A DNA stretch of 64,000 nucleotides from a virus (lineage: Duplodnaviria > Heunggongvirae > Uroviricota > Caudoviricetes): the IMG/VR virus record IMGVR_UViG_2617271087_000004; one strand, 5' to 3'. The position numbers and the translations under genes are program-made. Below are positions 18,911 through 21,469 of this stretch, one piece after another. The notes beneath the pieces were generated by a model. That model ran no database searches and was not told the origin of the DNA. It was given only the letters and a program-made list of their open reading frames with translations. How positions within the stretch are numbered: position 1 is the first letter of the stretch; the number at the start of each line of letters is the position of its first letter.

Positions 18911-19612
18911 TTATTCTGATTCTCGCTCAAAAAATGAGCTGATAAGGGGAAGCCAATCCTCTGACACTTCGCGAGGTCGCGGTTTGCCGTGGAAAAAGAT
19001 TATTCGGCAGTCTTTTGGTAATGCCCCATTCCCCCTGGAGTAACGCGCGCTCGCATATTTTGAACCAGGTTCCACAACATCGGCCTTGTAACTTACAAAC
19101 CATCCTGGATACAGATCCTGAAATGCTGGTGTATCATCGCCCATAACCTTTCGTAAGAACCCCTGGTCACCCCAGCACTCAGTAGTGACACAACGAGAAA
19201 TCCAACCTTCCGGATCTTGCCAGAATGAACTCCAGATATGCGCTTTAACACTATTTGGTATCCACAGGGCACCGCTGCCACGATATTGTGGATGGTAAAA
19301 ATCCCTAAGCATGGTGAAGCTGGTTGGTGGATGCTCTAGGATTGGGCGTATATCACCGGCAATAACCGTGTCCAAATCCAGATAGAACAGATCATCGGTT
19401 ATATCCGGTCGGAACAACTCGATTTTCGCCCACCAGCCACGGCACTTTTGCCACTGGTTGATCAATGGGACAACTTTGACGCCAGGTACATGTAAACACT
19501 TCAGGTCTGTCAGGCAAATAATTTCATAGTCTTTTGGCAGTTGATTAACCAGCCACTGCACATCGGAAGCGTTATAGTCACCACCAGAGCGAAGAACTAA
19601 AGCAATCTTCAT
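18911..19612 (-). CDS. putative DXD-motif glycosyltransferase-like protein
   Basis: 233-aa ORF with [12 protein letters not shown] (DxD) motif. Confidence 0.45.
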
Positions 19613-20301
19613 GCTGCACCATCACCTTTCACTTTCATCAATGTCAGGTTTCCGCAAAATACGGCACCAGTGTCGATATACTGCTGATTCCAGAATGTCT
19701 TCGGGCTTTTCACCGGAGTGTGACCAAAGATAAAACGATCTGCGCCCGAAATTTCGCCACCAATATCATCCATCGAATCACTGATACGCTCGCGCGCCCA
19801 GACAACGTTGAAAAGCGGCACCTCCTTACCGAATTGGTATTCATTATCCGGATAGTCGGCATGGGCTATAACGATAGTTTCTTGCCCGGTGTTCAACTCA
19901 ATGATATAGGGCAGACGCTTTACCAGCTCCACCAGCGCCCTGGCTAATATTTCCTGATCAGTGTCCAGCATGAAGAACCATTGTCCGCCATTCATTAGCC
20001 AGTTATTCACGTTGCCATCAGGACTTAACGCATCGAGCATCAACCGCTCATGGTTCCCCATCACTGCCCTGAACCAGGGCATCTGCAATAGTTCCAGACA
20101 TTCGACATTTTCAGTACCGCGATCGATAAGGTCGCCGACCGATATCAGTAAATCCTGCGCCGGGTCAAAATCCACACGATGGAGTTCGGACATCAGTCTG
20201 GTGTAGCAACCATGCAGATCACCAACAACCCAGACATTCCTGTATTTGGTACCGTCGATACGGTGATAAATTGTGGGTGCCATCATGTATTCTTCAGCCA
20301 T
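19609..20301 (-). CDS. ppp: Ser/Thr protein phosphatase (calcineurin-like metallophosphatase)
   Basis: GDLHGCY...GDLIDRG...GNHE metallophosphatase motifs. Confidence 0.85.
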
Positions 20302-20909
20302 TCTTTAAGAGTCATCTGCGGAATACCTCCCATTTTCCCGCATGAAACAACGTCAATCTGTTCACGCGCAGACTGGAATAACAAAGGCAGGTGACTTAGA
20401 TTTTTTGGCGTGCCGCCGGAGTGAACGCGTAGTTCTTGCGTAGCGTCAACGCCCACCAGAGCTACATGTTTGAATCCGATATGGAAAGCCAGGTTCAGAG
20501 CACCATATGCACTATTGCCGCTGGCAATTTCATTCTCATCTTCGCAAAGGCCGAAATGTGCGGACCAGCGCCACGCCCACCACTCGGGAGAATTCGTATT
20601 TTTTGGCTCCATGCCGCGTTCAGCCACACGACGGAAGCACAGAACGCCATCTCTGACTTCACGTTCTTTAACATCGGGTAGTGCCATGCAATAACAAACA
20701 CCACGGCGACGGCGGCCACGACCAACGCGCCGCATATTGTCTGGGGATGGATCAAGGGTGAAAAAATAAGAAGCGCGGTTAAGCCAGTCGATGGCCCCAT
20801 TGACCGCTATAATCGGCACTCCGCGCGGCGCAACAAAGTTTGCGGCGCTTGGGCCACTGCCGACGATAATAACGCGATCACTGCCTCTAAATTTATTCTT
20901 GGGAAACAT
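20283..20909 (-). CDS. DUF115/GT42-like (sialyltransferase/Maf-like) protein
   Basis: N-terminal [11 protein letters not shown]...IIAVNGA motif; paralogous to the upstream ORF. Confidence 0.45.
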
Positions 20910-21469
20910 TGAATTGCACTGCTCCTACTTGCATTCAAAATATGTAAATCTGCGTGTTTTTTGCGGGTATCCAGGAACTGCTGTTGCCATTTTGAAATAG
21001 ACACCTGCGTTGGATTCCGTAGTGCTTGAGGGTGCGCGCCATGCCAATGAAGGCCGTTTTGCAGAGAACAGTCATAGCCGACTAATACCACTACTTCAGC
21101 CCCTGATTCAGCAGCCAGACTGATAGCCTGCGCGCCGCTATTTACCCCTTCCGCCGGTCCACAATATCGCCTGTACTCCAACGAAAATGATTTCGCCGCC
21201 GCCAGGTTGGCTGTCACTTTGCGGAATCTCCCTCCCGGTATGGTGGATCCGTATTGCTTCCACCATGACAAATCACCGGCGTATAAGGCATAAATGTCAT
21301 CGAACATCTGCCAGGAATTGTTAACCGCGATGATTGAACAGCCAGTTTTTTCTATAGCAGCACAGTCCTCACGAGTGAGTGACGGACCGCTACCGACACA
21401 AAAAACAGTCCTAGTCGCCCTGCGTGGTATGTTCATTCTCAGCTGCAAATTCAGCCTCCAGGCGAGCAT
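20807..21469 (-). CDS. DUF115/GT42-like protein, paralogue
   Basis: FCVGSGPSL...IIAVNNS motif; 3' end overlaps the next ORF by ~100 nt. Confidence 0.45.
   Translation of the reverse strand: MLAWRLNLQLRMNIPRRATRTVFCVGSGPSLTREDCAAIEKTGCSIIAVNNSWQMFDDIYALYAGDLSWWKQYGSTIPGGRFRKVTANLAAAKSFSLEYRRYCGPAEGVNSGAQAISLAAESGAEVVVLVGYDCSLQNGLHWHGAHPQALRNPTQVSISKWQQQFLDTRKKHADLHILNASRSSAIQCFPRINLEAVIALLSSAVAQAPQTLLRRAECRL

Follow-up and report, generated by a model that had tools for sequence, protein, structure and literature searches.

The pmgO-pmgP-pmgQ genes of a P1-like phage form a conserved module that may O-glycosylate a virion protein

What does a phage gain from a run of four overlapping genes, three that look like sugar transferases and one for a protein phosphatase? 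Such a run lies in the DNA analysed here, a 64,000-nucleotide stretch from a tailed-phage record (IMGVR_UViG_2617271087_000004) referred to below as the window, and an earlier note made from its letters had read it as a glycosyltransferase cluster beside a Ser/Thr phosphatase. Comparison of positions 18800-21600 with phage P1 (AF234172) gave 99.6% identity and identified the window as a P1-like phage. The P1 record annotates the matching genes as pmgQ, ppp, pmgP, pmgO and pmgN, together with dbn; the operon is P1 pmgN-pmgO-pmgP-ppp-pmgQ. The ORF list contains all four chained frames, on the minus strand and at exactly the coordinates first proposed. Their ends do overlap, by 4 nt (pmgQ/ppp), 19 nt (ppp/pmgP) and 103 nt (pmgP/pmgO), and a 59-nt overlap between pmgO and pmgN adds to those already claimed. 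Features of the P1 record were transferred to the window with an offset of +10799, and the locus reads as follows.

18844-18860, plus strand: OpmgRb, C1 operator (consensus scan and P1 annotation)
18893-18909, minus strand: OpmgRa, C1 operator (consensus scan and P1 annotation)
18911..19612, minus strand: pmgQ, 233 aa, predicted GT8-like retaining GT-A glycosyltransferase
19609..20301, minus strand: ppp, 230 aa, predicted lambda-type Ser/Thr metallophosphatase in a variable slot between pmgP and pmgQ
20283..20909, minus strand: pmgP, 208 aa, distant pmgO paralogue with the same inferred fold, probably the partner subunit (ORF, PHROG 2111)
20807..21469, minus strand: pmgO, 220 aa, DUF115/MptE-fold, Maf-like putative ulosonic-acid transferase subunit
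21411..21566, minus strand: pmgN, 51 aa, acidic product, opens the operon (ORF, P1 annotation, PHROG 2350)
21610..21626, plus strand: Oppp (Op83), degenerate C1 operator, upstream of pmgN in the P1 annotation
21639-21665, minus strand: PpmgN promoter (P1 annotation mapped onto the window)
27403..28401, minus strand: dbn, 332 aa, possible GT-B (GT4-like) glycosyltransferase with conserved E248-x7-E256
28401-29771: DnaB-like gene, with dbn directly downstream of it

OpmgRb and OpmgRa (18844..18909) mark the boundary at which the pmgN-Q unit ends and pmgR-pmgS starts. Oppp was missed by a C1-consensus scan allowing at most three mismatches. Since C1 operators are annotated around the operon, lysogens are unsuited as test material, while induced cells or virions are suited. 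Published knockouts and CRISPRi show that the P1 pmg operon genes are non-essential. Glycosyltransferase names for pmg genes are already public in RefSeq and PHROGs, and the interpretation itself is not new; the P7 record labels its copies 'head morphogenesis'. No study of these genes turned up in literature searches on DUF115 or WaaZ in phages.

Two details of the reading frames were considered separately. Homologues of PmgO begin about 11-17 residues later than the annotated frame, so translation of pmgO may really begin at codon 12, an ATG. Two X_XXY_YYZ heptamers at the start of pmgP raised the idea that a programmed -1 frameshift fuses PmgO with PmgP; they were judged chance occurrences, since close homologues do not conserve the residues encoded there and since the frameshift product would lose the conserved C-terminal helix of PmgO.

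PmgQ was first noticed for a DXD motif, which is present as D79-L80-D81 and is invariant in 41 homologues. K63 and D149 are likewise invariant, G148 and Q150 occur in at least 90% of sequences, and H208 is a candidate metal-binding His that falls two residues out of register in the GT8 alignment. PmgQ matches PHROG 1962 'glycosyltransferase' (E = 1e-127), and its family profile recovers Skp1 alpha-galactosyltransferase (6mw5, E = 1e-8) and glycogenin (about 2e-5) from the PDB. Foldseek searches with an AF2 model (pLDDT 95) retrieved glycogenin, LgtC, GlyE and WbbM at E values of about 1e-8 to 1e-7, with TM-scores to GT8 structures of 0.5-0.6. The GT8 enzymes glycogenin, Skp1 alpha-galactosyltransferase, LgtC and GlyE have in common with PmgQ the GT-A fold, the DXD, the Lys and a GDQG-like motif, whereas PmgQ is compact (233 aa) and a Pfam search with a cut-off up to E = 10 gave it no family, not even Glyco_transf_8 (PF01501). 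Family profile and model together predict that PmgQ is a GT8-like retaining GT-A glycosyltransferase.

The next two genes had been described as tandem paralogues with the motif of DUF115/GT42 sialyltransferase-like enzymes. Both PmgO and PmgP do contain VGSGPS...IIAVN, and their paralogy is real though distant: pairwise BLASTP gives E = 0.003 across 36 residues, and profile-profile hhalign of the two families, from alignments that left aside the fusion protein P0051, gives a probability of 98% (E = 2e-13, 162 columns). A Pfam search, which the earlier note had proposed as a check, placed the P1 proteins under the 34.6-bit gathering threshold of PF01973 (PmgO 23.7 bits, PmgP 20.9 bits), while homologues pass it (P0051 44.6, P0305 41.5 and P0325 43.6 bits), in P0051 through its P-like half. 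By these scores P1 PmgO and PmgP are classed as divergent relatives of PF01973, not HMM-level members. The PmgO family is large: its profile matched 496 clusters (built at 50% identity) at E <= 1e-30, a number that rises to 3611 at E <= 1e-10. The structural prediction that had also been suggested was made for PmgO and gives a DUF115/MptE fold, the PF01973 Rossmann-like fold common to Maf and MptE; the fold of PmgP is taken from paralogy, its family profile having no significant match among PDB sequences. The top structural match of PmgO is the flagellin glycosyltransferase Maf (Magnetospirillum, PDB 5mu5; 164 aligned residues), followed by the sialyltransferase Cst-I, and the structural relatives found in viruses are all uncharacterised. 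The sugar-transferase reading, which the earlier note had let depend on a glycosyltransferase fold being found, is supported by both models, that of PmgQ matching GT8 folds and that of PmgO matching Maf.

The DUF115/GT42 label can be kept for the fold of PmgO, which resembles Maf, MptE and Cst-I, but not at the level of the PF01973 threshold or of sequence similarity to GT42. Campylobacter Cst-I and Cst-II, whose acceptors are lipooligosaccharides, show no significant sequence match (E about 0.35-1.3), and no position equivalent to the catalytic His of Cst-II could be mapped. A two-family alignment has invariant P, N, D, W, S, G and D columns, from which we take D66/S111/D133 (PmgO) and D53/S133/D155 (PmgP) as candidate catalytic residues. 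Mutagenesis has shown that Maf needs E324 and D415 (5mu5) and a conserved Ser (Ser334 of CbMaf); by motif order, the invariant D, S and D may correspond to these Maf residues.

PmgO and PmgP could also be read not as glycosyltransferases but as enzymes of the MptE/thiamine-pyrophosphokinase kind that pyrophosphorylate a small molecule or sugar, with PmgQ acting independently. We consider this distinctly unlikely. Maf is the top structural match of PmgO over 164 residues; the Cst-II profile matches, weak as they are, land on its GPSL and SG...GID motifs; and the constant linkage to a GT8 gene, with frequent methyl- and sulfotransferases and an extra GT-A-like gene, fits glycan assembly.

That linkage became visible across genomes. 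Homologues of O, P and Q lie within 6 kb of one another in close P1/P7-type phages, more distant P1-like phages and many IMG/VR contigs, and also in Pantoea, Pseudescherichia, Serratia, Zhongshania, Pseudomonas, Gilvimarinus, Brevundimonas and Sinomicrobium (Bacteroidota). The diverse IMG/VR loci came from a scan seeded with distant homologues; another scan gave near-identical P1 contigs only. PmgO-PmgP-PmgQ is a conserved module from Proteobacteria to Bacteroidota, a comparative result that is new here, and the named hosts of the homologues are all Gram-negative. Natural fusions accompany it: P0051 joins PmgO to PmgP (one case), P0305, P0325, P0379 and P0349 carry tandem DUF115 pairs in single proteins, P0405 joins PmgO to a TylF-type O-methyltransferase, and P0311 joins it to Big_1/Big_13. 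The slot between P and Q varies in content, with methyltransferases in some loci and a sulfotransferase or a further GT-A-like gene in others; Ppp fills it in close P1/P7-type phages only.

The position of the module is also recurrent. In at least 13 phages unrelated to one another its neighbours are genes for the capsid, the connector or the portal. An HK97-type capsid gene, alone or together with a connector gene, directly precedes it in L096, L103 (a Pseudomonas prophage), L104, L107-109, L112, L116, L120, L121, L123, L125, L126 and L128. In L111 and L115 its neighbour is the portal gene, while in Citrobacter phage phiNP, L117 and L118 it has lysis genes on one side and terminase on the other. 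A TEP-repeat protein is encoded in L104 after the capsid gene and before PmgO. The P1 module lies apart from the major capsid gene, and chromosomal copies sit among invasin-like, Ig-like Big_1 proteins. Proximity to head genes is circumstantial, as accessory genes unrelated to the virion also occur in late operons.

These comparisons change the standing of the phosphatase. Ppp is a metallophosphatase as claimed (Pfam Metallophos, E = 9e-16, 59.4 bits against a cut-off of 21.5); it matches NCBIfam PRK11439 at E = 6e-82, under the equivalog cut-off of that model, belongs to the NinI-like PHROG 246, and is given in the P1 record as 64% identical to lambda PP. Its sequence marks it as a predicted lambda-type PPP Ser/Thr phosphatase, PrpA-like. 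The adjacency of transferases and phosphatase holds, but Ppp stands outside the conserved module, being found only in close P1/P7-type relatives, to which pmgN is also restricted among the loci compared. An obligatory partnership was rejected, since more distant P1-like phages carry O-P-Q without Ppp; in the P-Q slot it is probably an unrelated insertion of close P1/P7-type phages. Clear insertion of this kind, and the dispensability of all the genes, would suit a cluster without unified function, made of independently acquired accessory genes that are adjacent by chance in P1, Ppp being partner to none. For the cluster as a whole we regard this as quite improbable, given that dozens of unrelated elements from different phyla carry O, P and Q together, one O-P fusion included, a pattern one would not look for in unconnected accessory genes.

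A further GT-B-like gene had been placed downstream of ban, and the frame and its place after the DnaB-like gene are as described; the GT-B part is weaker, with a Pfam Glycos_transf_1 match under the cut-off (E = 3.5e-5, 23.8 bits against 26.4) and the EX7E motif E248-x7-E256, which is invariant in 3 homologues. A Dbn profile found no match among PDB sequences. Homologues of Dbn occur near the P/Q module in Serratia L004, in Buttiauxella L100 and in L124. Dbn is, on its sequence, a possible GT-B (GT4-like) glycosyltransferase, and dbn an optional fourth component of the O-P-Q module.

We tentatively favour, at a little short of an even chance, the reading that the products of pmgO, pmgP and pmgQ, in some phages joined by that of dbn, are soluble cytoplasmic enzymes that build a glycan and O-link it to a protein in the course of lytic growth; the likeliest acceptor is a protein of the head or of another part of the virion. 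This reading builds on what was observed here, namely the folds and families of the proteins, the conservation and genomic positions of the module, and the fusions; that O and P pair, that the acceptor is a protein, which sugars are donated and in what order the steps run are what we infer. PmgO and PmgP, minimal single-domain relatives of Maf, would pair up to transfer an ulosonic acid from its CMP-activated form, and CMP-Kdo is a plausible donor in E. coli K-12. PmgQ, as a retaining GT8-type enzyme, would add a hexose from a UDP-sugar, and in other phages the methyltransferases, sulfotransferase or extra GT-A-like enzyme encoded between P and Q would tailor the glycan. CMP-Kdo is to our knowledge the only CMP-activated ulosonic acid donor in E. 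coli K-12, which, as far as we know, makes no CMP-sialic acid (CMP-Neu5Ac); a literal sialyltransferase reading of the motif is for that reason unlikely in this host. Maf enzymes have been reported to put Kdo onto Ser/Thr in E. coli BL21.

Maf itself differs from the phage proteins in several respects. It has flanking helical or TPR acceptor-binding domains, or a GlfM partner, for flagellin recognition, whereas PmgO and PmgP are single domains of about 200 aa; it is found in flagellar gene context, whereas PmgO and PmgP occur in phage late-gene context, as a heterologous pair or fusion that is phage-borne and always GT8-linked, with no flagellin. We know of no P1 virion protein that is glycosylated, and a similarity search of the P1 ORFs of the window against the Big_1 neighbours, as a route to the acceptor, found no similarity. 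Plating and antirestriction are unaffected in the published pmg knockouts and CRISPRi experiments, so any role must be subtle under laboratory conditions. Extended to P1 and many Gram-negative tailed phages, with a head or virion protein carrying a short O-glycan built by a PmgO-PmgP heteromer from host CMP-Kdo and by PmgQ, the proposal is unlikely, though worth stating.

The acceptor could instead be a glycolipid of the host envelope. P1 adsorbs to the LPS core, and remodelling that receptor in lytic growth would mask receptors on debris and infected cells. GT8, the fold family of PmgQ, contains the LOS galactosyltransferase LgtC as well as WaaJ and WaaO, two core glucosyltransferases of E. 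coli; Dbn resembles GT4-type enzymes. WaaZ, the E. coli KdoIII transferase (GT73) of the LPS inner core, acts on lipid-linked core, has the SGP...IIAVNG N-terminal motif and the G-L-D motif in common with the phage pair, and gives the fusion P0051 a faint precomputed match (PF27901, WaaZ_KDO_III). WaaZ is longer (283 aa), however, and hhalign against its single sequence is weak, with probabilities of 20% (PmgP family) and 9% (PmgO family). The same three enzymes are kept from Bacteroidota to Alphaproteobacteria despite differing core structures, the module is embedded in head-gene clusters and not in typical conversion-gene sites, its chromosomal copies and one fusion go with Big_1 proteins and not with LPS genes, and no membrane-association features were apparent on reading the sequences. 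We see envelope remodelling as clearly improbable.

Glycosylation of phage DNA after replication, as a way to evade restriction, we hold to be highly improbable. DNA-hypermodifying phage glycosyltransferases are well documented, and PmgO, PmgP and PmgQ appear soluble and cytoplasmic. P1 DNA, however, is a classic restriction enzyme substrate, and we know of no hypermodified base reported in it. The neighbourhoods examined showed neither a hydroxymethylase nor any other gene for activating a base, the module lies in structural operons and not in replication modules, Maf as the closest structural relative acts on protein, and antirestriction is unchanged in the knockouts.

A parallel to protein O-glycosylation by the module comes from mycobacteriophages, in which virion glycosylation was reportedly described by Freeman et al. 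in 2023. Their phage-encoded glycosyltransferase genes accompany structural genes, as in pmg-type loci. They differ in using other enzyme families and Gram-positive-type hosts, with no DUF115 pair reported, whereas the P1-type system is a prediction from genes. One genome announcement states that such genes suggest capsid protein glycosylation.

P1 is among the phages most used in genetics. If the proposed O-glycosylation is correct, virion glycosylation, so far mainly a matter of mycobacteriophages, would reach Gram-negative phages, including phage-plasmids that spread resistance genes; it would be, as far as we know, the first virion-glycosylation system of Gram-negative phages and a natural case of Ser/Thr-O-Kdo. 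Some bacteria would then have recruited the module to glycosylate Ig-like (Big_1) surface proteins. P1 knockouts and a K-12 host would offer a genetically easy system in which to study how minimal Maf-like enzymes choose acceptor and donor, and the modification may affect the stability, immune recognition and host interactions of therapeutic and transducing phages.

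The element is a P1-like phage: between window positions 18800 and 21600 the sequence has 99.6% identity to Escherichia phage P1 (AF234172) and 98.3% to P7. Further left, the stretch 15800-16519 (ORF 15992-16573, minus strand) aligns to P7, with its upf86.8-type ORF of 193 aa, and not to P1 pmgT; since the window follows P7 to the left of a switch at about 16519, the element is a P1/P7 mosaic and not P1 itself. The genes of interest are the following:

18911-19612, minus strand, pmgQ
19609-20301, minus strand, ppp (phosphatase)
20283-20909, minus strand, pmgP
20807-21469, minus strand, pmgO
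21411-21566, minus strand, pmgN, preceding pmgO, pmgP, ppp and pmgQ
27403-28401, dbn

An earlier note had described a glycosyltransferase-like cluster beside a Ser/Thr phosphatase, and its coordinates, overlapping ends (4, 19 and 103 nt) and motifs were all recovered. In P7 the same set is named hdmA-D, for 'head morphogenesis'. Upstream of pmgN the P1 record places a C1 operator, Oppp, and a promoter, PpmgN; it also places two further C1 operators in the pmgQ/pmgR interval, both found by our consensus scan (18844-18860 and 18893-18909). By this annotation the pmgN-Q unit is under C1 control and would therefore be repressed in lysogens. Across the whole window, 15 sites matched the operator consensus with at most 3 mismatches (0.33 expected by chance), among them 1925-1941, 16752-16768, 22517-22533 and 32949-32965; the annotated Oppp (21610-21626), with 5 mismatches, is too degenerate for this set. 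Two nearby annotations also deserve comment. The 'putative morphogenetic' pmgM (21633-22211, minus strand) gave sub-threshold matches to VRR-NUC (Pfam) and to a Holliday-junction-resolvase-like family (PHROG 5702), so that its product may be a nuclease and not a structural protein, and Pap (16768-17274, minus strand), annotated 'acid phosphatase', matched PF25109, the HAD phosphatase domain of polynucleotide kinase-phosphatase (E = 8e-12), better than it did acid phosphatases.

Glycosyltransferase names for these genes are not new, as RefSeq and PHROGs already label pmgQ 'glycosyltransferase' and pmgO 'alpha-2,3-sialyltransferase'. Genome-wide CRISPRi found pmgO, pmgP, ppp, pmgQ and dbn non-essential, as had a previous study according to a table in the same paper, and Gonzales et al. 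observed no plating or antirestriction defect in 24 of 29 single-gene deletions. In that CRISPRi work pmgN, at the head of the operon, scored as essential (EOP 1.4e-2), whereas the table gives it as non-essential in the previous study, a discrepancy that may come from polarity or off-target effects. Our literature search found no paper on the biochemical function of these P1 genes. Given the existing labels and the dispensability of the genes, the surprise is limited.

PmgO and PmgP share the motif GSGPS...IIAVN. Pairwise BLASTP between them is marginal (E = 0.003), and the alignment of their family profiles spans 162 columns at 98% probability (E = 2e-13), so that the tandem paralogy proposed earlier holds and the two are true but old paralogues. 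For the proposed DUF115 (PF01973, MptE-like) assignment, the PmgO match fell below the Pfam threshold, and homologues of PmgP exceeded it, so the placement of PmgP in this family would follow from those matches and from its homology to PmgO. Homologues of PmgO do not vary at GPS, N50, D66, W69-W70, S111-G112, G131-Y-D-C-S135, H141/H143/H146, N179 and R182. In an alignment of both families D66, S111 and D133 of PmgO and D53, S133 and D155 of PmgP are invariant, and by motif order they probably correspond to residues needed for activity in Maf, the flagellin glycosyltransferase that best matches the PmgO model. Pyrophosphokinase chemistry, with which the fold is compatible, is a less likely alternative for PmgO and PmgP.

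At the pmgO/pmgP overlap (20880-20910, minus strand), exactly where pmgP starts, the pmgO frame carries two X_XXY_YYZ heptamers, T_TTC_CCA and A_AAT_TTA. A -1 slip there would join PmgO to PmgP, as in a natural fusion known elsewhere (P0051), but the heptamers are probably fortuitous because close homologues do not conserve the residues that they encode. Homologues of PmgP are also found in Escherichia myoviruses of ~111-116 kb (EP_H11, IME392) and, at ~33% identity, in the Xanthomonas and Stenotrophomonas jumbo phages XacN1, Xoo-sp13, CM1 and RAS14 (records H43-H48).

PmgQ matched no Pfam family, even at E = 10. A profile of 41 family sequences nonetheless matched solved GT8 enzymes, namely Skp1 alpha-galactosyltransferase (E = 1e-8) and glycogenins (~2e-5), and a Foldseek search with the AF2 model (pLDDT 95, pTM 0.92) retrieved glycogenin, LgtC, GlyE, WbbM and LARGE1 (E about 1e-8 to 1e-7, TM-scores 0.5-0.6). 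Conserved positions are K63, D79-x-D81, G148-D149-Q150 and H208; the reported DXD motif is a DLD that is invariant in all 41 homologues. Structure prediction and family profile agree on a GT8-like enzyme. By family matches Ppp is a Metallophos phosphatase of the PrpA/lambda-PP type, in line with the earlier claim. The 'GT-B-like gene downstream of ban' proved to be dbn; its putative GT-B character draws on sub-threshold matches to the GT1 clan (Pfam) and a conserved EX7E motif.

Diverse loci were searched with family HMMs for PmgO, PmgP and PmgQ, and in many elements homologues of the three lie no more than a few kilobases apart. Besides close P1/P7-type phages and many IMG/VR contigs, these include more distant P1-like phages (L114, L119, L124, L127, L131) with the order pmgM-O-P-Q-pmgR-pmgS and no ppp, and loci from Pantoea, Pseudescherichia, Serratia, Buttiauxella, Zhongshania, Pseudomonas, Gilvimarinus, Methylophilaceae, Microbulbifer, Brevundimonas (Alphaproteobacteria) and Sinomicrobium (Bacteroidota). 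Such conservation contradicts a random assembly of accessory genes. The slot between P and Q varies in content from element to element: it may contain a class-I methyltransferase, an FkbM methyltransferase, a sulfotransferase, an additional GT-A-like gene or no gene at all. Such variation would be expected if the genes form a cassette that assembles a glycan and can swap its tailoring steps. Ppp fills the slot only in close P1/P7-type phages and is therefore not a conserved partner. Homologues of Dbn are found with the module in Serratia, Buttiauxella and one P1-like contig. In one metagenomic phage a PmgO-PmgP fusion of 376 aa (P0051) is followed by a PmgQ homologue, and the PmgO profile also retrieved tandem DUF115 pairs, a fusion to a TylF-type O-methyltransferase and a metagenomic protein (P0311) that joins PmgO directly to Big_1/Big_13 Ig-like domains.

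The module often sits among head genes. It lies between an HK97-type major capsid gene, directly upstream, and head-tail connector genes in L096, L103, L104, L107-109, L112, L116, L120, L121, L123, L125 and L128, after capsid and connector genes in L126, after the portal gene in L111 and L115, and between lysis genes and terminase in phiNP, L117 and L118. A Gilvimarinus prophage (L104) has, between its major capsid gene and the gene for its PmgO homologue, an ORF (9166-9555) for a protein of 129 aa that is rich in Pro and Thr and carries (TEP)n repeats; this protein is a candidate mucin-like acceptor of O-glycosylation or head decoration protein. In Pseudescherichia and Serratia chromosomes the homologues are scattered among invasin-like Big_1 proteins (L105, 2241-15359; L004, 10001-12442), several of which, judged by reading their N-termini, begin with no apparent signal peptide. 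A search for acceptors found no similarity between P1 ORFs and these Big_1 neighbours.

The GT8 resemblance of PmgQ, together with a possible resemblance to WaaZ, the KdoIII transferase of the E. coli LPS inner core (hhalign probability 20% for the PmgP family and 9% for the PmgO family), suggests remodelling of the LPS core, which however leaves unexplained the conservation across phyla, the position in head-gene clusters and the links to Big_1 proteins. Glycosylation of DNA is unlikely for P1, as what we know of P1 DNA speaks against it and no supporting genes were seen in the neighbourhoods examined. The enzyme folds, the constant association of O, P and Q, the tailoring genes that occupy the variable slot, the head-cluster positions and the links to Ig-like proteins point to O-glycosylation of a protein in the cytoplasm; in phages this protein would most likely belong to the head or to another part of the virion. 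As regards fold and family, the reading of the earlier note is upheld. To our knowledge, CMP-Kdo is the only CMP-activated ulosonic acid in E. coli K-12, and it would be the donor for the Maf-like pair PmgO/PmgP in that host. Transfer of Kdo to Ser/Thr by Maf enzymes has been demonstrated in E. coli. All named hosts of the homologues are Gram-negative, which lends weak support to this donor. We found no prior description of the conserved O-P-[X]-Q module (X being whatever gene fills the slot), of its head-gene context or of the fusions, which together provide a concrete hypothesis of virion glycosylation that is testable with existing strains.
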